The notes under the pieces are model-generated. The model was not told the origin of the DNA. It did no database searches and was given only the letters and a program-made list of their open reading frames with translations. Positions 26,286-37,900 of a stretch of DNA of 64,000 nt are shown here, piece by piece. The stretch's first letter is position 1; every line of letters begins with the position of its first letter. This DNA comes from Chloroflexota bacterium (GTDB lineage: Bacteria > Chloroflexota > Dehalococcoidia > UBA2979). Location: positions 1 through 64,000 of the forward strand of contig JAQCIU010000009.1 in NCBI GenBank assembly GCA_027593235.1, given 5' to 3'. Both the position numbers and the translations under genes were made by a program.

Positions 26286-26566
26286 CGGACCTCCTCGGCG
26301 CGTACGTTGTGCCCCGGAGACCGTGAGTCTATGCGAACGTTCGTTCGCATGTAAGCATCGCCACGTGCCGCAGCGGAGGCCGTGAAGGCGGGCGGCCGAG
26401 ACGGGTCGCAACACCATCGCGCTCCCCCTCGAGAAACTGTCTGTCGCTCTCATGACTCCACAACGCAAGCCACCGTACAACCAACAGACATAATTCTGTC
26501 CGGATTCCGCGCATCTCACGTGTGCATCGGATATCGTCCCGGCGGAACGGCAGCGGAGGCGTAGTC

Positions 26567-28162
26567 ATGCAGACCCCACCCACCCCCTCAAAGACCTCGA
26601 TCGGCCTCGGACGCACCTGGCGCTTCGCCACGGTTGCGCTCGTATTCGCCATCGCCGTCGCACTGATCGGCCAGGCAAACGCCCCGATCGCCTCGGCGCA
26701 GACTCCGGATGCGTACCAACCGACGGCTGTCGCTGGAGACGTCGTCCCCGGTCGATACGCCATCAAGTTGGCTGAAGGCGACCATGAAGCAACATTCGAC
26801 GCTATTGCTTTGGCCGGTTTCGAGGTGGTGCGGGAACTCCCAACGCTTGGTTGGGTAATCGTCACCGAAGCCAACCACGAACTGCGGTCACGTTCCCTCG
26901 AACATGTCGAACTAGCCTTAGCAACTGTGCCCACCGTGCTATCGATCGAACCGGTGCTCACGTACGAACTCACCGGCATCGCCTCTGCTGAAACCACCAG
27001 CCTTCAAGCTCCCGCCGCAGCTGCATCCAACGATCCTCTGCTCTGGCTGCAATGGGGAAATTTCAGCACGAATGAGACGGATGCTTGGGAGATCACCGAG
27101 GGAGCCGGTGTCGTTGTCGCCGTCATCGATTCCGGAATCGACCTCACGCACGAAGACCTCCCGGCGACCGTCCTCCCTGGCTTCGATGTCATCGACGGCG
27201 ATACGGACGTCACGGACACATCCGGCCACGGCACTCATGTTGCTGGGACGATCGCCGCGCCGCGAAACAACGGCCTCGGTGGCTCCGGAATCGCCCCGGC
27301 GGCTCAGATTCTGCCTGTTCGTGCTTGTGACGACATAGTTTGCACATCCGAGACCGTCGCCGCAGGTATCGAGTGGGCGGTCGCCAACGGAGCTGATGTC
27401 ATCAATATCAGCATCCGGGGTCCCCATGACCCGTTGCTGGAGTCCGCGACCTTGCTCGCGCTTGCAAACGACATTGTTGTCGTCGCGGCGACTGGCAACG
27501 ACTATTTCGATGGCGTCCCGATCTACCCGGCAGCGTTTCCCGGAGTGATCGGGGTCGGCGCACTCACTCCCGGACGCGAGGTGGCCGATTTCTCGAACAC
27601 CGGGAGCTTCGTTGACGTCGTCGCACCCGGTGCTGAGATCTGGTCCTCGGTACCGGCAGCAGTCGAAGGGGTTTCGTATCGGGCATGGAACGGCACCTCG
27701 ATGGCCACACCCCACGTCGCTGCGATTGCGGCGCTCCTCCGGGCGGCGAACCCATCGTTCACGCAGGCGCAGGTCTCTGCCCGGATTCAGGCCACGGCAG
27801 TCGACATCGGCATTGGGGGATTCGACACCGAATCGGGGTTCGGAGCGGTCGACGCGTACCGCGCGTTGACGAACGGAGCGAACCCGACAGGCGACTACGT
27901 CGAGATCGATATCGAGCACGCGGCGGTCGGTAACCTGCAAGTCGAACTCGGACATAGCAATAGCGGCTCCCGTCTCCTGTTCGCACCTAATCCCGGGAAT
28001 TCCCACGACGACATTCGCGTGCGGTACTCCCTGCCCGATTCCGCCCTCGCGGCGGTTCCCGGCACCTGGATCCTGGGCGTCGCCGACGTCGTTCCACTTG
28101 TCAGCGGAGAGATCACGGGTTTCAGACGGCGGGTTCAAGGGATCGACGCAACGAGTTGGTGA
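26567..28162 (+). CDS. secreted subtilisin-like S8 protease with P-domain
   Basis: GGAGG RBS, signal peptide, VAVIDSG (Asp), GHGTHVAG (His), GTSMATPH (Ser); C-terminal IDIEH...NLQVEL...GTWIL resembles a P-domain. Confidence 0.92.
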   Translation: MQTPPTPSKTSIGLGRTWRFATVALVFAIAVALIGQANAPIASAQTPDAYQPTAVAGDVVPGRYAIKLAEGDHEATFDAIALAGFEVVRELPTLGWVIVTEANHELRSRSLEHVELALATVPTVLSIEPVLTYELTGIASAETTSLQAPAAAASNDPLLWLQWGNFSTNETDAWEITEGAGVVVAVIDSGIDLTHEDLPATVLPGFDVIDGDTDVTDTSGHGTHVAGTIAAPRNNGLGGSGIAPAAQILPVRACDDIVCTSETVAAGIEWAVANGADVINISIRGPHDPLLESATLLALANDIVVVAATGNDYFDGVPIYPAAFPGVIGVGALTPGREVADFSNTGSFVDVVAPGAEIWSSVPAAVEGVSYRAWNGTSMATPHVAAIAALLRAANPSFTQAQVSARIQATAVDIGIGGFDTESGFGAVDAYRALTNGANPTGDYVEIDIEHAAVGNLQVELGHSNSGSRLLFAPNPGNSHDDIRVRYSLPDSALAAVPGTWILGVADVVPLVSGEITGFRRRVQGIDATSW

Positions 28163-28683
28163 GCACCAAGGTTCTTGGGGAGCTCGTCAAGGAGGGCGTC
28201 GATCCCTTGAACCCGCCCATCCAAATCCTGGATGCCCTGGGCAACCCGCTCACCAGCTTCCCAACGGCGATCGAACTCTCGTTCCTGCTCCCGGACGGCG
28301 TCGACGGTGACGCCCTCTCCGCCTACTTCTGGGACGAGCAGACCGAGGCCTGGGCCAGCGTCGGTGGCAGCGTGGTCGGCGGACGGTTCGTCGTTCAGAC
28401 GAGCCACCTCTCCACCTATGCGCTGTTCCAGTTCGGGGCCGGTGGTGGTTTCAACGGGACGCTCCCGGCCTCCGGGGTCACCATCGCCACCGCACAGGGC
28501 GGCACCCTCACACAGCTCCGTGCCGTGCTGGCACGCGACGGGGCGCAGTCCGTGTTCATCTCCTATCGAGGTCGGTTCGTCGGCTACGTGCTGAACGCGC
28601 CGGACTTCGTGAACGCGGAGTTCCTCGCCGCCACCGGCGGCGTGCTCACACCCGGCCAGGCGTTGATGGTCGTCATCCGCTAA
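28156..28683 (+). CDS. C-terminal module ORF (beta-sandwich plus shared C-terminal domain); probably the frameshifted tail of the S8 protease
   Basis: Overlaps the S8 stop in another frame; no signal peptide or RBS; YFWDE..EAW...SHLSTYAL; last 80 aa align with the C-terminus of 1426-3036. Confidence 0.7.
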   Translation: MVSTKVLGELVKEGVDPLNPPIQILDALGNPLTSFPTAIELSFLLPDGVDGDALSAYFWDEQTEAWASVGGSVVGGRFVVQTSHLSTYALFQFGAGGGFNGTLPASGVTIATAQGGTLTQLRAVLARDGAQSVFISYRGRFVGYVLNAPDFVNAEFLAATGGVLTPGQALMVVIR

Positions 28684-28706
28684 CCCGCGACCCCGCGGAC
28701 CAACGG

Positions 28707-28741
28707 AACGGGCGCCCCGCTGGGGGCGCCCGTTTTCGTTT
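28707..28741 (+). terminator. intrinsic terminator
   Basis: AACGGGCGCCCC-GCTG-GGGGCGCCCGTT followed by TTCGTTT. Confidence 0.85.
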
Positions 28742-28945
28742 CCGCCCATCCCGCCACACCTCGAGCTGCCACCCACCATCGAGGACTGCCGCTAGCGCCC
28801 CCTCAGCTGCGCCCCCACCCACCACAACTGGGCAGCCCGCATCAGCACTGCCACGCGCCCTCCCGAGGGCAAACCCGCAGGATCAGCGCCGCGCCGGCAA
28901 GCGATCATGAGAGCCCACGCCGGCAGACCAAACACGCAGAGCCCG

Positions 28946-29800
28946 ATGACCGACCGAACGTCCGGACACCTCGTTCGCTTTGCCGCCGTCGCCGCGCTGC
29001 TCCTCGCCATCTCTGGCATCCGTGACCACAGCCTCGCGCTCGCCTCGAACGTCCACGTCATCCAGGTCGCCGTCGACGACGTCGCGCCGGACCTGGCGTC
29101 GCCGCTCGTCGCCACCGAGGGTGGTGTCGTTGCCGAGAGCACCGCGCCGGCCGGCGTTCCCGTCCCCTCGGGCATCGCCACCGCCGCGCAATCCCTCGAC
29201 CTCCCGCCGGCGGAGCTGATCGAACGTGCCATCGTTCACGTTCAGACCGCACAGAGCGCCGGCTCCGGGTTCGTCGTCGCCGGGAGCCGCGTCGTCACCA
29301 ACGCCCACGTCATCGGATCCGCCACCACCGCCACCATCTGGTTCTCGAATGGTGCGCGTCGCGACGGCACCGTCGTCGCCAGAAGCGATGAACTGGACCT
29401 TGCGGTCCTCTCCGTGCCGCGCATTCCCATCAGCGCCGGCTCGCTCGAACTCGCCGACCCCACCGCGCCCGCCGCCATGGGATCCGCCGTCTGGGCCTGG
29501 GGCTATCCGTTCGAGGCGGACGTGGTCGCGGCCGGCTTCAGCCGCGCGCCCACCATCTCCGCCGGCATCGTCTCCGCCCGACGTGTCCGCAACAGCGTCG
29601 CCTACATCCAGACCGACGCCGCCGTGAATCCCGGTAGCAGCGGCGGACCGCTGCTCGACGCGAACGCCCGCGTCATCGGCATCAACACCCTGGTGCTCAC
29701 GCCGGGCGGCAAAGACGCCGAGGGCCTGAACTTCGCCCTCGATGTTGCCGCTCACATCGACGCACTGCTGTTCCTGATCGCCCCGGAAGCCGAGCGCTAG
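28946..29800 (+). CDS. trypsin-like S1C serine protease (HtrA-like, no PDZ domain)
   Basis: GSGF, TNAHV, DLAVL, QTDAAVNPGSSGGPL. Confidence 0.9.
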   Translation: MTDRTSGHLVRFAAVAALLLAISGIRDHSLALASNVHVIQVAVDDVAPDLASPLVATEGGVVAESTAPAGVPVPSGIATAAQSLDLPPAELIERAIVHVQTAQSAGSGFVVAGSRVVTNAHVIGSATTATIWFSNGARRDGTVVARSDELDLAVLSVPRIPISAGSLELADPTAPAAMGSAVWAWGYPFEADVVAAGFSRAPTISAGIVSARRVRNSVAYIQTDAAVNPGSSGGPLLDANARVIGINTLVLTPGGKDAEGLNFALDVAAHIDALLFLIAPEAER

Positions 29801-29894
29801 AGCGCAACCGGCCGGCTCCCCAGCGGCAACCCTCCGTCCAACCCACCGAGGACCAACGCGACCTCGGCGTGTCCGAACGAGGACCGCCCGCCTG

Positions 29895-31304
29895 TTACCG
29901 GCGGTGCGGGTCGATCAGCCGCTCTTGCGTCCCGCCAGTCACCGTCAGCGTCAGCGGGATGTCCTGCCGCCGGTACATGCACACACCGGTCGCGTCGTCG
30001 CAGACGAAGTACAGCGCATACGCCTCGACGATTGCGTCGCCCGCCGGCGCGTCCACCGGAGCGCGCAGCTCGAACTCGAACGACCGAGGCTCGTCGCTCG
30101 TCTCCTCGGGCGGCAACTCCACCTCCCCCAGCGCGCGGTCAAGCTCCCACCCGGCCGGCGCCTGCACCCAGAGCTGCGTCGGCGCCATCTCGTTGTTCCA
30201 GTGCGCGCCCAGCGTCGCGTCCGGGCGCAGCGTCAGGTGCACCCGCAACGGATCCCCCGGCACCGCCGTCGGTGGGATCGAGGTGGCCTCGACAGTCACG
30301 AGGCCCTCGATGTCGCGGTCAATCCGCCCCGCTGCATCCGGCTCGCTCGCGGGGCCGGTCGCCACCTCGAACGTCGCCGTCGGTTCGGCGAACTCAGCGC
30401 CACCCGGCTCCACCGCGAGCGCCACGGGCACCTCGCCACGCGCCGCGATCTCCGCGCGAGCAGCGGGCACCCAGTCGTAGAACGGATACGGCTTATCCAG
30501 GCGCGGACCGTACTGCTGTAGCCGCCGCCGCCAGATGTAGTTGTTCGGGCCAATCTCCAGCGCCGTCGCCCAGTGGCGCGCCGCGCGCCCGAAGTCCCCC
30601 GCCTGTCGTCCGTCCGAGTCGTAGCGCATCCGCGCGATCACGCCCGCCACGAAGTGCGCGCGGTCGCTTGGTTCGAGGGCGATCGCAGCGTCGACAGCAG
30701 CCATCGCGTCGTCCAGGCGCGCCGCGCCCGCCCACGTCGCCAGCGCCATCGCGCGCGCCAGCCAGCCAGCCGCGTCGGTCGGTTCGGCCGCCGTCATCTC
30801 CGGCCGCAGATCCACCACCGCCGCGCTGCCCTCGGAGGGTGCCGGCGGCGCGAACTCGCGCTCGATGAACTCCGCCTCCACCGTCGCCAGATCATCCAGG
30901 CGCGGATGGATCATCCGCACCACGCCGTATTCGTCCAGCAGGAAGGTGCGTGGCACCGCCGTGAACCCCAGCAGATTGAACGGCTCCACCATCAGCGGCC
31001 AGTCAAGCTGCTTCCACTGCATGAACAGCGCCGCACGATCGGGGTGCTGCTCCAGCACAATCCCCGCCGTCTGCAGCTTGCCCGCTTCACGCCACGCCGA
31101 GGTCGATTCGTGCCACCCGGGCACGTGCTTCCGACAGCCCGCTCACCACGAAGCAAAGACGTGCAGTGCCAGTTTCTGCCCGCGGAACTGCGAGATCGAA
31201 CGCGGGCGCCCGTCCTCCACCCCCGGCAGCACCAGCTCCGGAAACGGCTCGCCCAGAGCGATCCGCGGCGCCCCGCCGGACTGCTCCTGCAGCGTCTCGG
31301 CCAC
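29895..31304 (-). CDS. selenoprotein: TlpA/AhpC-TSA thioredoxin fold (UxxC) plus TPR-like region plus DsbD-N-like domain, 469 aa
   Basis: ORFs 31143-31358 and 29895-31124 are in frame; read-through of TGA 31143-31145 gives HVFASW-U-AGC-RKH; C-terminal YFVCDDATGVC. Confidence 0.85.
31109..31125 (-). promoter_or_regulatory. candidate bacterial SECIS element
   Basis: CGUGCC-CGGGU-GGCACG; the loop starts after 23 nt downstream of UGA, with G at loop position 2. Confidence 0.55.
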
Positions 31305-31314
31305 CAGCCGCGCT

Positions 31315-32331
31315 CTAATCCCGCCGCGGCGCGCGGTTGAGCGCGGCCACCGGCACATCCAGGTGCAGCGTCTTCGTCTGCGGCAGGAAGCACTCGCGAT
31401 CGTTGCACGCCTGGTAACTGACGGTCACCTCCAGCGGGATCGCCTCAAGGTCCGGCGCCAGTCGCTGGATCCGGATCTTCACCCGCGCATCCTCGGCAAA
31501 CACGCGGAATTCATCATCCAGCCCCTCCAGCCGGAAGGGCGTCGTCGGCGGGTACTCGGGTTCGCCGACCTGGACTCCCTCGGGCGCGCTCACGCGCACC
31601 TCGGTTGGGATGTAGCCCTCGGGAATCGGTTGGCCGTAAACGTGCAGCCCCGGATCGACATGCAAGTCGACATAGAGCATTGCCGTCTCCATGAAGACCA
31701 GGCTCTCGCCGCCCAGCGTCGCTTCGATTCGAATCCCATCCCCGGCCACATCGGCGTGCGGGTGGTTGTCGACCTCGAAGTCCAGCCCGAATCCCTCACG
31801 CAGCACCGTCGAGGCCGAGGGTCGGGTGCGGTAGTGCTGGAAGAAGAGCTTCTCCTCGACGCGCCCGTCAATCCCCAGCACGTAGATCCCCGGGAACGGG
31901 ATCCCGTAGACCGCCTCATCCGGGCGGACCAGCGTGTTCAGAATTCCGGTCGCCTCAATCGCCCGGTGATCCGGGTCGGCCATCATCGGGAACGTGATCC
32001 CGAACTCCTCGGCGAACTTTCGCTGATCCTCGACCGGGTCGTACGAGATCGCGAACAGCGCGATCCCGGCCGCCTCGAACTCTGGAAGATGCTGTTGCAG
32101 CTGCACGAGCTGCGTTCGGCAGAACGGTCACCAACGAACGGAGCGGTGGAACAGCACCAGCGCCCGGCGGCTGCCGCGCGCCTGCTCCAGGTTCACCAGT
32201 GCGCCGGTCTGATCCGGCAACGCAATCTCCGGTAGGCGCTCACCGATCGCCGGTCCCGTCGGGAAATCATCGCTGGCGGGATTCCGCCCGGTTGGTGGCG
32301 TCTCGGGAGGCGTTTCGGGCGGTGTGGTCAC
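31315..32331 (-). CDS. selenoprotein: peroxiredoxin-like AhpC-TSA domain (UxxC) plus DsbD-N-like domain, 338 aa
   Basis: ORFs 32128-32439 and 31315-32106 are in frame; read-through of TGA 32128-32130 gives FHRSVRW-U-PFC-RTQLVQL; C-terminal YQACNDRECFLP. Confidence 0.88.
32097..32113 (-). promoter_or_regulatory. candidate bacterial SECIS element
   Basis: GCAGCU-CGUGC-AGCUGC; the loop starts after 20 nt downstream of UGA, with G at loop position 2. Confidence 0.55.
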
Positions 32332-32488
32332 GCGCGAATCCGTTCTGGTGCGAACGATCGAGGATGACCGAAAGCTTACCAGTCCCCGGTACCGTACCTG
32401 TGACCGCGGTCTCACCCACCGGCAACCGCAGCGGCGCATCGAGGACTCGTCGAAGAGTGTCGAAGGACCGTCGAGAAGCGCCCCGCTC

Positions 32489-33886
32489 CTACGGCTGAAC
32501 GCCTGCCTGTCGAACCCCCGGTGCAGGCGAAATCCGCACCTGTACCACCATCGATCCAGCCCCCGCTGGGTACGCCGACAGCGCCACCCAGCGATCCTCG
32601 GCGCGCTTGGAGATAATCACCGTCGTCGGCCCGGACACCTCGGACCAGCCCAGCGAGCCCATCGAACCGGCGTACGTCTTGAGCATCTCCTGGGCCGCAG
32701 CGGCCGGCAGCTCGTACGACAGGGTCAGATCCGCGCTGTCCTCGGTGTTGACCAACCGGCCCTCGGCCGGCACCAGTACGTCGCGGCTCTGGGTCGATGC
32801 GACCAACCGCAATAGCGGCGGCTTCGGGACCGGGGTTGCGCTGCTGGTAGCAGTCGCTGCGGGATCGCCAGTCGAATCGGCCTCGGGGGTCGCGACCGGG
32901 AACGTCGGCGTCCGCGGCGTCACCGCCAGCGCCGGCGGCACCAGCGCGTGATTGATCGCCGCCGCGATCTCCTCGATCGCCCGCACGCCCGCCGACTTTG
33001 TCGCCGCGCCCTCCGAGAGCACGACCACCACATGCGTCCACGGATCGTCATCCAGGTCGGGCACGCTGATCGCACCGGCAGAGTTCAGCAGCCAGCCCCC
33101 GACCAGCGGGTACCAGCCGTTCTTGATCGCCAGCGTCGCGCCGCTCGATGGCGACAGATCGACACCCGCCGAGGCACCCCAGCGCTGGTCCGCCACCACG
33201 GACTGCATCAGATCGAGGCCTGCCAGCCGCAGTTCGTCCGCCAGCGGCGAATCCTCCGCGATCAGTAACTCCACAAGCTGGGCGATCACCAGCGCTGACG
33301 CGCGCGAGTCCCCCCACTGCCCATCGTCCGCGAAATCGATCGACGTAATGTCGAGGGGCTCGAGGAACGCCGCCACCCCGGCCGCGCCACCCAGCGACTG
33401 CCACAACACGTCCGTCGCGCTATTGCTGCTCGCCGTGATCATCAGCTTCAGCAGTGTGTGTTCGTCCGAGGTCAGCGCCCGCTGCTCGAGCGCGGCCCGC
33501 TCCAGCGTCGCGATCAGCACCGGCAGCTTGACTACGCTCGCCAGCGCGAACTTCCCGTCGTCGCCGCCCACATAGTGCTCGCCGTCAGCGGTGACTACCG
33601 CCACACCAAGCCGCGCCGTGTTCTCGTCGATCAGCGCGGCGGCCGTCGCGAAGCGCACGCCGATCTCCAGCGCGTCGTCCGATGTGAAGCGAGAGCCGGG
33701 CTGGATGCTGGTCGTCACGCTCGGCGCGGCGGACACCGCCGTCGTCGGTACGGGCGCCGACAACTCAGTCGTGGTCGCCTGCACCAGCGGCGTCGCGGTA
33801 CTCACGACGACGCCTGAGCCGTCGCCGCGACACGCCGCAGCGAGCGCCAGCACGCAGAGCAATGTGAGTCCGGGGATTCGAGCCAT
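32489..33886 (-). CDS. lipoprotein, class A beta-lactamase-like serine hydrolase
   Basis: LAAAC lipobox; ASVVK (SxxK), SSN (SxN), KNGW (KTG-like); extra C-terminal domain. Confidence 0.85.
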   Translation of the reverse strand: MARIPGLTLLCVLALAAACRGDGSGVVVSTATPLVQATTTELSAPVPTTAVSAAPSVTTSIQPGSRFTSDDALEIGVRFATAAALIDENTARLGVAVVTADGEHYVGGDDGKFALASVVKLPVLIATLERAALEQRALTSDEHTLLKLMITASSNSATDVLWQSLGGAAGVAAFLEPLDITSIDFADDGQWGDSRASALVIAQLVELLIAEDSPLADELRLAGLDLMQSVVADQRWGASAGVDLSPSSGATLAIKNGWYPLVGGWLLNSAGAISVPDLDDDPWTHVVVVLSEGAATKSAGVRAIEEIAAAINHALVPPALAVTPRTPTFPVATPEADSTGDPAATATSSATPVPKPPLLRLVASTQSRDVLVPAEGRLVNTEDSADLTLSYELPAAAAQEMLKTYAGSMGSLGWSEVSGPTTVIISKRAEDRWVALSAYPAGAGSMVVQVRISPAPGVRQAGVQP

Positions 33887-34082
33887 CGAAACGCCGTCCA
33901 GTGCCCCGCCGTTCCGCGGTTGAGGTTAGCGGTTTTCTGGTCGTTATGGTCAATCACAACCAGCATTCGGCGCATCGGAGCTACCCCGAGGCACTGGAAT
34001 CACCCCTCAGGTGGTCACAAGGCGGGGGTGCCACGCTCGGAACACGCGCAGTTCGCGCCTGTCACGCGGGACGGCGCTGTGC

Positions 34083-34937
34083 TCAGCCGCTCAACGCACC
34101 GCGGAATGCTTGGGCGATCCGCGCGTGCCCAGGATCGCTCGCGTGCAGGCAATCCCCCGTCAGTTCGCCCTCGGACAACGTCCCGATCTCGGCGACCGCA
34201 ACGCCCGCGGCGACGGCCGCCGCCCGAATCTCGTCGTTCACCCCGGCGCTCAGCCCCAGCGCCTCTTCACCTTCAAGCACCACATCGCCGATGAGCTTGA
34301 ATTCATGCAGCGGGCACCCGGCGTGAACCAGCGGGTTGTAGTACGTCATCACCGCGATCGGGACATCCGGACCCGCCGCCGCCTGCAAGGTCTCGAGGAT
34401 GAACAACAGGTTCTTCTGAACGTCCCGGATCCGCACCGCCGCCATCGCCAGGCAGGCGTCGTCGACCACCCCATCGCACAGCGCGACCAGGCCGAAACCG
34501 TCGTTCCCACCGATGCCGACCGTGATCACCTGCACGTCGTCGCCGCGACTCGCCGTCGCCGCGCGGGCATCGATCATCGCGACCGCCTCGGCAAGCTGCC
34601 CGCCCTCGATCATCGAGAGCGTGCCCGCCCCTGAACGCCCGACGTTCACCAGCTGAAGTGGCGCGCCGCCACGATCGTCATTCAGCAGATCGAGCAGCCG
34701 CGGTACGTAGCCCCCGCGTCGCCAGTCCGTCGCCCCAACGCCCACCGCCAGTGAGTCGCCCAGCGCGAGGTAGATCGGCGCGTCGGTGGGAGGTCCGCTG
34801 GTAGCAGTCACGGGTGCCGCGGTCCCCGTCGTTTCCGCCTCAAGCATTCCGTCGGACCCACACGCCACCCCGATCAACGTGATCGCGGCGGCCAGGGCGG
34901 CGGAACGGCGGAGCAACTGCATCGTGAGCTTCATCAT
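34083..34937 (-). CDS. SGNH/GDSL hydrolase lipoprotein
   Basis: GVAC lipobox; YLALGDS, GIGGND, DCLH. Confidence 0.88.
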   Translation of the reverse strand: MMKLTMQLLRRSAALAAAITLIGVACGSDGMLEAETTGTAAPVTATSGPPTDAPIYLALGDSLAVGVGATDWRRGGYVPRLLDLLNDDRGGAPLQLVNVGRSGAGTLSMIEGGQLAEAVAMIDARAATASRGDDVQVITVGIGGNDGFGLVALCDGVVDDACLAMAAVRIRDVQKNLLFILETLQAAAGPDVPIAVMTYYNPLVHAGCPLHEFKLIGDVVLEGEEALGLSAGVNDEIRAAAVAAGVAVAEIGTLSEGELTGDCLHASDPGHARIAQAFRGALSG

Positions 34938-34968
34938 CGCGCAGTGCTCCGCCGCAAGGAGTTAACGG

Positions 34969-37900
34969 TTAGTCATCGTGACCGCCGTGGTGCCCACGGC
35001 CCTGCCACCAGATCGACGTGTACGGCCAGTGGCCGCCACGCTTGTACGGCCAGTACCCGAACCCTGCGTTGCGCAGGATCGTCTCGACGATTGCCGCCTC
35101 GGCCTGCGCCGGAAGCTGTCCACCCTCGACGAGGTTGCACAGCGCAGGCAACGACGGGTGCTGGTAGCGATCGAGGTGATCGCAGATCTCCTCCACCCGC
35201 GTGTTCCCGTTCGCCTCCCACTCCACGAACACCGTTGCCTGTGGCTCCCCGCCATCGAGCACCCCGTCACCATCGAGGTCGGCCCACGCGAGGATCACAT
35301 CCGTGCCGGCGCCGCCGTCACCTCGGTAGCTCCCGGTGGCGCGGCCCTTGTTGTCGGTGCGCTCCTGGTCCGTCTCGCCCTGGTTCGGGCCGCTCGTCAC
35401 CTGGAATCGAACCAGCACGCCGCTCACCTGCGGCGACACGGTTGCCGTCACCTTGTGCATCTTGCCGACCGGCCGATCGTCGAACTGTGGTACCAGCGAA
35501 ATCGCCGAAGCGTTGAGTGCCGTCCACTGCTTCGTCGCGATCGCCTGCGGCTCGCCGTTGTCCACGCGCCCATCTCGGTCGAGATCGACCCAGGCGAGAA
35601 TCACGTCGCTGCCGACGCCACCCTTGCCCTCATAGGACAGATCCGCGCGACCGCTCGAGTTCGTCTTGTCCGAACCCTTCGTCCCGTTGTTCGGCCCGGA
35701 CGTCACCTCGAACCGCACCAGCAGATCGCGCTGGGCAGGTGACACCGTCGCCGTCATCTGATGCTTGCTGTTCACCGGGTTCGTGTCGCTCGCGGGCGTC
35801 AACGACAGCGCCGGCGCCACCGCTGCAGTCCACTGCTTTGTCGCAACCGCCTGCGGCTCGCCTGCATCGATCTGGCCGTTGCGGTTGAAGTCCACCCACG
35901 CCAGCACTACGTCCGTACCGACACCCTTCGTGCCGACGTAGGAGAGGTCGGCACGACCGCCGTTGTTGGTGTCATCGGAACCCTTCGTGCCGGTGTTCGG
36001 GCCAGCCGTGACCTAGAATCGGACTAGCAGCCCGCTCTGCGCCGGCACCACGGTCGCCGTCATCGAATGCCGCGTGTTCACCGGGTTCGTGTCGTTCGCC
36101 GGTGTCAGCGCGAACGAGCTGGCGGCCACCGCCGTCCAGCCTCGGATCACCGCCGTCTGCGGCTCGTTGGCGTCGATCACGCCATCGCCATCGGTGTCGG
36201 CCCAGACCAGCACCAGATCGGATCCGACACCGCCACTCCCGAGGTAAGCGAACGTCGCTTGCCCGCTGGAGTTGGTCAGCGCGATCCCTTCACGTCCCAG
36301 GTTCGGTCCCTGGTTGACCCGGAACCGCACCAGCACGCCGTTCACCGTCGGCGACACCGTCGCCGTTACCGTGTGCTGCGTGTTCACCGCACCGCTGCTG
36401 CTCGTCGGCGTCGCACTGATGCCGCTGGCCTGCGTCGAGGCCCAACGTTGCGCCGCCGTCGCCTGCGGCTCGTTCGTGTCCCGCACACCGTTGTTGTTCA
36501 CGTCGAGCCACGCCATCACCGCGTCGGACCCGACTCCCCCGTCTCCGAGGTAGGCAAACGTCGCGCGCCCCAGGCTGTTCGTCACGCCAACCCCTGCGTC
36601 ACCCTTGTTCGGCCCCGCCGAAACGAAGAACCGCACAATCGCGCCGCTCTGCAGCGGTCCGACCGTCGCCGTCACCGTGTGGGTGGTCCCCACCAACGAA
36701 ACGTTGTCCAGCGGCGCCAGCACAATCGACTTCACCGGAACCGTCGACGTCCACGTCTTGGCCGCCGTCGCCCGCGCCTCGCCGCTGTCGAGCACCCCGT
36801 CGTCGTCGGCATCGATCCACGTCGCGATCGCGTCAGTCCCGGTCGTCGTTCCCCAGTAGCTGAAGGTCGCCTGACCGGCGGTATTCGTGAGCACCCGGCT
36901 GACCGCACCAATGTGCGGCCCCGCCGTGATCCGGAACCGCACGACCAGACCCGACTTCGCCGGGCTAGCCGTGGACGTCACCGTGTGAACCGTCCCCACG
37001 CGGTTGCTCGCCGTTCCTGGGGAGACAATGATCGTCTGGCTCGGCGTTGCGGTTCCCCAGTTCGCGGTCGCCTGTCCTCGCGGCTCGTTCGAGTCAAGCA
37101 GGAGGTTCTGATTCAGGTCCGCCCACGCAACGATCACGTCAACGCCGTCGCCACCGCGCCCAAGGTACGTATACGTGCCGCGCCCACCGCCATCGGTCAG
37201 CGCAACGCCGCGCGCCCCGGCGTTCGGTCCCGAGGTCACCTCGAAACGCATGTAGAGCCCGGACTGGGCCGGAGCCAGCGTCGCATTCACCGTGTGCTGG
37301 CCGCCGACCGCCCGCTGTGCTGTGCTCGGCGCTACGACCACGCCACTGGTCGACCCGGTGGTCCAGACCCGCGTGGCTGTCGCCTGCGCCTCGTTGCCGT
37401 CCCGGATGCCGTCCGAGTGAAAGTCCGGCCACGCCGTGATCGAATCGGTACCCAGACCGCCGTTCCCGCTGTAAGTGAACGTCGCCTGTCCGCTGGCGCT
37501 CGTAATCGCAATCCCCGAAGTCCCGACGTTCGGCCCACTCGGGATCTGGAACCGGACGAGGACGCCGCCTTGGGCGGGCGACAGAGTCGCCGTCAGCGTG
37601 TGTCCGCTGCCCTGCGTACCGCTGGAGCTGCTCGGCGAGAGCTGGATGCCCGTACCGGCGACACCGACCCACTGGACGATCGCTGCACTGACGGGTTCGG
37701 TGCTGTCACGGACGCCATCTCGGTCCAGGTCTGCCCAGACGAGAATCGCGTCGGTTCCCACACCGCCCGTGCCGTTGTAACTGAAGATCGCGAGCCCGTT
37801 CGAGTTCGTATCGAGCGCACCGCTGCCACCGGCATTCGGGCCCGATAAGACCTGGTAGCGAACCCGCACGCCACTTTGCGCCGGCGACACAGTCACACCC

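Follow-up and report, generated by a model that had tools for sequence, protein, structure and literature searches.

The 64,000-nucleotide stretch of DNA analyzed here, referred to below as the window, comes from contig JAQCIU010000009.1 of a Chloroflexota bacterium and carries on its minus strand two adjacent genes, called A and B, each of which is interrupted by a single in-frame TGA codon. Gene calling with genetic code table 11 breaks the region into four minus-strand open reading frame (ORF) fragments, at 32128-32439 (103 aa), 31315-32106 (263 aa), 31143-31358 (71 aa), and 29895-31124 (409 aa). Translation of TGA as selenocysteine (Sec, U) joins the first two fragments into gene A and the last two into gene B, with 10 bases between the TAG of A (31317-31315) and the GTG of B (31304-31302). 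The GTG starts of both genes, at 32331 and 31304, agree with the beginnings of their orthologues. The TGA lies in both genes at the first position of a WCxxC-type motif, and both proteins have a pair of cysteines (Cys) near the C terminus, in YQACNDRECF for A and in YFVCDDATGVC for B. An initial annotation, made from the letters of the DNA and its ORFs, had proposed that the four fragments collapse into two genes, that the TGA codons and Cys pairs are placed in this way, and that standard annotation had split two genuine UxxC selenoprotein genes, and our analysis bears out each of these points. The explanation that we consider likely for the locus as a whole is that A and B are intact selenoprotein genes encoding self-contained UxxC oxidoreductases with C-terminal Cys-pair domains. 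The features of the two genes are collected in Table 1.

Table 1. Features of genes A and B and their positions in the window
Feature	Position	Strand	Details
Gene A	31315..32331	-	338 codons; GTG start 32331, TAG stop 31317-31315; peroxiredoxin (Prx)-fold UxxC domain plus DsbD_N domain
Predicted Sec codon (TGA) of A	32128..32130	-	reads ...LVLFHRSVRW-U-PFCRTQLV...
Putative selenocysteine insertion sequence (SECIS) hairpin of A	32097..32113	-	GCAGCU / loop CGUGC / AGCUGC; stem 14 nt after UGA
A AhpC/TSA (peroxiredoxin-fold) domain with U-P-F-C	31852..32247	-	PF00578, E 1.4e-24, 86.9 bits (cut-off 26)
A DsbD_N domain	31360..31686	-	PF11412, E 8.2e-12, 45.6 bits (cut-off 25)
A Cys pair C309/C314 (YQAC-NDRE-C)	31407-31405, 31392-31390	-	both invariant in 35 sequences
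Gene B	29895..31304	-	469 codons; GTG start 31304, TAA stop 29897-29895
Predicted Sec codon (TGA) of B	31143..31145	-	reads ...ALHVFASW-U-AGCRKHVPGW...
Putative SECIS hairpin of B	31109..31125	-	CGUGCC / loop CGGGU / GGCACG; stem 17 nt after UGA
B TlpA/ResA/DsbE-like thioredoxin-fold domain	30909..31253	-	PF00578, 30.2 bits (cut-off 26); PF08534, 27.4 bits (cut-off 26.6)
B TPR-like helical domain	30504..30812	-	model helices at residues 178-264
B C-terminal beta-sandwich	29940..30299	-	eight strands, residues 336-455 of model; invariant HWNNE
B Cys pair C435/C442 (YFVC-DDATGV-C, Cx6C)	30002-30000, 29981-29979	-	invariant columns; in last hairpin of sandwich

The strongest evidence that the TGA codons are read as Sec is their conservation among relatives. 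When 61 genomes, that of the window and those of 60 relatives, were searched in six frames, A was matched in 22 genomes at E <= 4e-71, and the match contained exactly one TGA in 21 of these and none in the remaining one. Alignment of the 20 orthologues for which loci were returned placed a TGA in the Sec column in 19 and a TGT (Cys) codon in one (L035). These orthologues share 40-76% identity with the protein of the window, and conservation extends over both sides of the codon in the pattern RSxRW-U-P[FY]CR[TS]Q. In the protein database, most of the 120 listed matches of A are fragments of about 263 aa that begin past the TGA, and roughly twenty are full length, at 312-347 aa; all 20 of the full-length forms that were aligned have Cys at the Sec site. 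All named relatives among the listed matches are Dehalococcoidia.

Gene B is far more widely distributed: 535 relatives were confirmed when contigs representing one genome per species were scanned, and the database contains more than 1,700 clusters of the family. Among the 80 loci taken from these 535 relatives, TGA fills the Sec column in 79, within the nearly invariant [FW]ASW-U-xGCRxH and with conserved flanks on both sides. The exception, on a Bryobacterales contig (L137), matches B only from residue 99 and has a different N-terminal region with no WUxGC domain; a swapped domain or an artefact of assembly may explain this. The phyla given in the record titles of the loci include Acidobacteriota, Gemmatimonadota, Verrucomicrobiota, Chloroflexota, Latescibacterota, Planctomycetota, and Methylomirabilota. 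All 120 listed database matches of B are fragments of 336-421 aa that cover 70-84% of the query, and each of the 15 that were aligned begins at or just past the Sec position. With the N-terminal residues 25-110 as the query, no full-length Cys form was found among 8 matches, all of them post-Sec fragments, in a word-based search that could miss distant Cys forms. Judged from these sequences, Sec appears almost never to be replaced by Cys in B. The expectation that homologues would carry Cys or TGA at this column, with conservation on both sides, thus holds for both families, and the recurrence of TGA at the same column in 19/20 and 79/80 relatives excludes two chance nonsense mutations, which had been called very unlikely from the outset.

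Further evidence comes from the nucleotides that follow the TGA codons, where the relatives share a potential hairpin of the kind expected of a bacterial SECIS element. The hairpin of B has a 6-bp stem, formed by columns 21-26 with 32-37 counting from the T of the TGA, and a CGGGU-type loop. Across the 80 sequences, 97.9% of 480 stem cells are paired, and changes on both sides that preserve pairing occur in 3 of the 6 pairs (9 cells), for example from GUG/CAC to GUA/UAC or AUA/UAU. The covariation score was reached by 0 of 500 shuffles, and in registers slid from this position no more than 62.5% of the cells are paired. The 6-bp stem of A is nucleotide invariant and 100% paired in 19/19 Sec-form orthologues, and the Cys-form orthologue has a different, nonpairing sequence in its place. 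A G is present in the apical loop of both putative hairpins (CGUGC in A and CGGGU in B). The codons in this region are also constrained beyond the protein, as the mean major-codon fraction, a measure of synonymous codon fixation, is higher over the first 12 codons past the UGA than over the rest of the gene in both A (0.895 versus 0.719) and B (0.785 versus 0.558).

Two results count against the hairpins: the hairpin of A shows invariance and no covariation among its 19 Sec-form orthologues, and single-sequence folding of the 63-65 nt after each UGA gave structures no more stable than those of shuffled sequences (z +1.47 and +1.68). A scan of 29500-32800 against Rfam at E <= 10 found no SECIS family and gave four chance-level matches, the best with an E value of 0.97. 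Because lone folding is no better than shuffles and Rfam gives no match, the support for the hairpins comes entirely from the comparison across relatives. Metagenomic contigs from four runs, one of which may be the source of the window itself, showed no difference at either TGA among the differences listed, with polymorphisms present nearby. The depth of matching contigs rises to about 150 at 31109-31148 and 32095-32133, compared to about 12 around these positions. Many otherwise unrelated contigs match only these blocks of about 40 nt, made up of the UGA and the hairpin, whose nucleotide sequence is conserved from one organism to another.

The genome from which the window is taken has what is needed to decode UGA as Sec. 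In the host assembly (3.39 Mb in 78 contigs and 89.7% complete, with the window being its contig 40), selA (544 bits), selB (300 bits), selD (359 bits), and tRNA-Sec (72.7 bits) are all found above their curated cut-offs, which settles the question of the Sec machinery raised by the initial annotation. The tRNA-Sec has the anticodon TCA according to ARAGORN, and the selD match spans one in-frame TGA. The stop codons of the 15 Pfam-supported ORFs around the locus (window 19303-46450) are TAG in 10 cases, TAA in 3, and TGA in 2, and since two of these ORFs end in TGA, the codon is not generally reassigned. The alternative that the TGA codons are read by near-cognate read-through or under a reassigned code, or that nonsense mutations have turned the genes into pseudogenes, has the splitting of both genes by standard gene calling in its favor. 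It is extremely unlikely in view of the TGA conserved at the same column with purifying conservation on both flanks, the conserved downstream hairpin, the complete Sec machinery, the continued use of TGA as a terminator in other genes, the position of the codon at the catalytic Cys of a CxxC motif, and the existence of a Cys orthologue of A. Taken on this comparative evidence, A and B are almost certainly both Sec-decoding selenoprotein genes.

The product of gene A is modeled with high confidence (AF2 predicted local distance difference test [pLDDT], 94; predicted template modeling score [pTM], 0.87), and the top Foldseek matches of its N-terminal domain are Bcp4 (3hjp) and AhpE. We considered whether A could be a peroxiredoxin proper, for which a PxxxTxxC/U peroxidatic motif is described in PMC13188914, and rejected this, as A reads H-R-S-V-R-W-U, with no Thr three residues before the Sec, and this column of the alignment is occupied by residues other than Thr. 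None of the NCBIfam models, the peroxiredoxin models included, matched A at its cut-off, and the best was that for a SelL-related redox protein, at 49 bits versus a cut-off of 120. Because the Thr of PxxxTxxC is absent, we place A with the Prx-like thiol:disulfide oxidoreductases, and from its sequence it is predicted to act as such an enzyme and not as a peroxidase.

Gene B encodes a three-domain protein whose model is also of high confidence (pLDDT, 93; pTM, 0.92). Foldseek matched residues 1 to about 150 to 3gl3 (E 8.9e-10), ResA, and TlpA, and VIA identified the same thioredoxin fold with Z scores of 14.3 for 4grf (rmsd 2.3 over 133 residues) and 14.2 for 3gl3. The helices that follow (residues ~165-267) run into the family-invariant stretch PNxYIWRRRxQQYGPRLxKPYxFYDW. 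For these helices, VIA gave 1na3 with a Z score of 12.6 over residues 175-267, a value that lies within the chance background for helical repeats, and on the TPR models of Pfam the B of the window reached only a sub-threshold match (TPR_14, E 0.034). Many homologues have precomputed TPR matches in Pfam, and together with the helices of the model these are in line with the TPR-like middle that had been proposed for B.

The initial annotation had further proposed that both proteins are fused to a DsbD-N-like domain. This stands for A, where the Pfam match to DsbD_N is well above the cut-off, and it does not stand for B at the level of detectable homology. Three sequence comparisons were negative: a comparison by hhalign of the C-terminal domain of B with the DsbD_N alignment of A gave a probability of 0.13% (E 0.43), the DsbD_N model of Pfam matched 2 of 30 members of the B family and then only at E >= 0.12, and a profile search of the Protein Data Bank (PDB) with this domain gave 0 hits. 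Sub-threshold matches to the Ig-like NPCBM_assoc were found in 16 of the 30 members. Atlas returned unnamed clusters and a single DsbD_N lead, at rank 30 with a score of 0.84, and the Foldseek and VIA lists for full-length B are dominated by its N-terminal and TPR parts.

The closest named family to B is NF041054, the ResA-like WAxxUGC motif-containing protein (WAxxUGC_long), which is the best NCBIfam match in 38/38 B members and aligns over profile positions 84-315 of 354, that is, over the thioredoxin fold and the helical region. The B of the window scores 56 bits against this model, and the best member has an E value of 5e-26, compared to a cut-off of 300 bits. The motif of B is W-U-A-G-C (UxxC) and not UGC, and about 190 further residues of B, including the Cx6C beta-sandwich, lie outside the matched region. 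On these profile scores, B is best regarded as a relative of the NF041054 family and not as a member of it.

The N termini of the B family divide it in a way that bears on where the protein works. Read by eye, the N termini of B from outside Chloroflexota are signal-peptide-like or lipobox-like, and nine Chloroflexota sequences (the window, L061-L064, L079, L095, L098, and L132) start with a short polar peptide of the 'MT.L.DLQD' type. As a numerical measure, each locus was scored by the maximum Kyte-Doolittle mean over 12 residues in the region that precedes the first conserved strand, for which two loci were too short. A hydrophobic N-terminal segment, with a mean of at least 1.67, is present in 68 of the 70 scored relatives from outside Chloroflexota, and 7 of the 8 scored Chloroflexota loci have values of 1.15 or lower. 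The nine signal-less rows fall on one side of a branch with a Shimodaira-Hasegawa-like approximate likelihood ratio test (SH-aLRT) value of 99 in a maximum-likelihood tree of 80 sequences. In the A family, an N-terminal hydrophobic stretch is found in 0 of 35 aligned sequences. The initial annotation had seen no evident signal peptide in either protein, and this agrees with the lack of a hydrophobic N-terminal stretch in both; for B, it is a derived feature of the Chloroflexota clade. Going by these N termini, B is predicted to be exported in most phyla, and export would have been lost once, in Chloroflexota.

Several aspects of the data weaken this conclusion. The signal-peptide groups were first set by eye from the N termini of all loci, one Chloroflexota row reaches 1.82 on the hydrophobicity measure, and the tree is a quick maximum-likelihood tree and not the outcome of a careful search. 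In addition, the cytoplasmic location of A and B is proposed for one reason only, that they have no classical signal peptide. Given this, A and B in this lineage most likely act in the cytoplasm. Separately from these groups, the two low-scoring loci from outside Chloroflexota are L078 (0.16), which is also unlike the family upstream of the motif, and L120 (1.18), whose low values may stem from an alternative start, a frameshift, or a genuine loss. Chloroflexota B proteins (29898-29930 in the window; L063, L064, L079, L098, and L132) have in common a short additional tail at the C terminus (..RL[RKI]D.., e.g., ERLIDPHRR and RRLRDG), and the exported relatives are without it.

DsbD_N domains are normally periplasmic. 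It could be argued on this basis that A and B, which have no classical signal peptide, are nevertheless exported or surface exposed and have envelope proteins as their targets, which is presumably also the case for the relatives of B in other phyla. The hydrophobic N termini of the relatives of B outside Chloroflexota would fit such a role, as would the protease and hydrolase genes that flank the locus, among which the beta-lactamase-like and GDSL ORFs have signal-like N termini. We find this improbable, since no N-terminal hydrophobic stretch is present in the nine Chloroflexota B sequences, as judged by eye, or in the 35 aligned A-family sequences, and a loss that extends over a whole clade fits a stable change of compartment.

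The adjacency of the two genes invites the question of whether their products work together, as the initial annotation had suggested in describing a paired relay encoded by an operon. This could not be upheld. Among the 80 B loci, A adjoins B only in the window and in two loci of the same genus (L061 and L062), so that what lies behind the proposal is adjacency within one genus, and the synteny of the pair does not extend beyond it. No conserved neighbour of B was found: when 391 flanking ORFs from the 80 loci were clustered, no cluster occurred in more than 3 loci. Because no neighbour family exceeds 3 of the 80 loci, we regard B as self-contained, and this is most likely the case for each of the two proteins. 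The tandem arrangement with its 10-bp spacing is a peculiarity of the genus, in which A and B are probably co-transcribed. Consensus scans for promoters and terminators in 29600-32700 gave no match, and a search for RNA runs that cover the stretch listed none.

In the DsbD system, domains of the DsbD_N type and of the TlpA/DsbE type dock with each other. A and B might by analogy form one relay with four redox centers, equivalent to a DsbD pathway that is soluble and cytoplasmic, in which the UxxC of A would charge the Cys pair of its own DsbD_N domain, this would pass electrons to the TlpA-like WUAGC center of B in the way that nDsbD reduces CcmG, and B would send them on through its Cx6C domain. 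Both the relay and this particular route seem doubtful to us. The genes lie 10 bp apart on one strand, and both relatives from the same genus have kept this arrangement; the DsbD_N domain of A is a true one, and the fold of B is TlpA/DsbE-like; and both proteins are signal-less here and so would share a compartment. Against these points stand the confinement of the adjacency to one genus, the six other Chloroflexota B loci that have no A neighbour, the absence of a conserved partner gene for B anywhere among the 80 loci, and the distribution of the two genes, with Sec-form A in 21 genomes and full-length B in only 3 of them, that of the window included.

A more far-reaching version of this idea would be that the B family is an essentially obligate-Sec three-domain oxidoreductase that moved to the cytoplasm in Chloroflexota and was wired to A in this genus, giving a four-center soluble selenium/sulfur relay that replaces the membrane-bound DsbD route. 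The view of B as essentially obligately Sec dependent arises because no Cys form appears in the 80 loci, among the 120 listed matches, or in the search with the N-terminal domain. As a whole, this version strikes us as quite unlikely. No CcdA/DsbD membrane protein or thioredoxin reductase is encoded in the window between about 19 and 46 kb. At four other B loci, a distant AhpC-type gene with 28-31% identity lies nearby. As an observation in its own right, B is immediately followed in three loci from outside Chloroflexota, and on its own strand, by an AhpC/TSA-type gene that is 28-29% identical to the N-terminal domain of A (L110:4359-4775, L083:2477-2995, and L133:4589-5041).

Returning to A and B as self-contained UxxC oxidoreductases, a mechanism can be modeled on the way in which the alpha domain of DsbD works with thioredoxin-fold partners and on the chemistry of UxxC redoxins. 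UGA in both mRNAs would be decoded as Sec with the help of the short hairpin directly downstream. The exposed Sec of the UxxC motif would be the nucleophile that attacks a disulfide or other oxidized sulfur of the substrate, and the second redox residue of the motif would resolve this attack with formation of a selenenylsulfide. From the architecture and the high pTM values, we infer that the selenenylsulfide exchanges with the Cys pair of the C-terminal domain of the same protein, which could then connect the UxxC center with a donor of the thioredoxin type or with additional clients, with electrons presumably passing to or from them. The sequence comparisons and models establish the coding of Sec, the identities of the domains, the conservation of the Cys pairs, and how signal peptides are distributed; the direction of electron flow, the exchange within each chain, and the nature of the substrates belong to the proposed mechanism, as does a setting in the cytoplasm.

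A comparison with known systems places A and B next to several described groups. DsbD, with nDsbD acting on cDsbD, CcmG, and DsbC, resembles both proteins in combining a thioredoxin-fold center of the CxxC type with an Ig-like Cys-pair domain, and the C-terminal domain of A is the DsbD_N of Pfam. A and B differ from it in having no membrane domain, another order of domains, Sec in place of Cys, and a likely cytoplasmic location, and the second domain of B has no detectable homology to nDsbD. A 2026 review of the prokaryotic selenoproteome lists 119 families (PMC13188914), among which are the generic entries 'Prx-like thiol:disulfide oxidoreductase (UxxC)', 'thiol-disulfide isomerase-like (cd02966, UxxC)', 'redoxin family (PF08534, UxxC)', and 'UGC-containing TlpA family'. 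Its Table 1 and text passages contain no entry with a DsbD_N fusion or with TPR plus a Cys-pair extension. A resembles the Prx-like thiol:disulfide oxidoreductase selenoproteins (PMC13188914; 'Prx-like 1' in PMC2398784) in its PF00578 domain, in having Sec first in UxxC, and in the coexistence of Cys and Sec forms, and it differs from them in its extra C-terminal DsbD_N domain, a fusion not found in the passages of these two papers, and in having no signal peptide. The fusions in section 9 of the Global Ocean Sampling (GOS) study differ in architecture from A and B (PMC2398784). Compared by their descriptions, two of the generic entries share the fold class and the Sec motif of B and mention no TPR or second Cys-pair domain, and B may already be contained in one of the generic entries (PMC13188914).

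In a literature search over the text of papers, with passages of BSepDB (PMC13326102) among them, the term 'WAxxUGC' was not found, nor was a paper describing either architecture. The signal-less Chloroflexota clade of B, the architecture of A, and the tandem arrangement are new. The UxxC thioredoxin-fold selenoproteins are a known class, and the chemistry is for this reason not new. The consequences lie mainly in annotation. In every case examined, the stored entry for a B protein is a fragment that is called 'hypothetical' or 'TPR repeat protein' and is missing the catalytic domain, and no NCBIfam model covers the family; annotation, counts of selenoproteomes, and the inference of traits are therefore wrong for many phyla. 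The rarity of Cys in B is unusual and makes the family a good case for studying what selenium does beyond sulfur. The loss of the signal peptide in Chloroflexota B and the presence of DsbD_N in a signal-less A suggest that modules of a periplasmic type have been reused in the cytoplasm. On the whole, we see this as a solid correction of annotation with moderate biological interest, and the relay is unproven.

Products of the genes on either side of the locus (26522-29800 and 32489-35907) include a subtilase, a trypsin-like protease, a beta-lactamase-like protein, and a GDSL hydrolase, and the N termini of the beta-lactamase-like and GDSL ORFs are hydrophobic as well as signal-like. The scarcity of TGA stops among the 15 ORFs near the locus (2 of 15, window 19303-46450) might reflect an avoidance that accompanies heavy use of Sec. 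Elsewhere in the genome, the one in-frame TGA in selD (G000:C16:112734-113672, L011) indicates that selenophosphate synthetase is probably a selenoprotein itself, and two more redoxin-like matches with one in-frame TGA each (G000:C34:12706-13011 and G000:C11:2826-3323) are possibly further split genes for UxxC selenoproteins.

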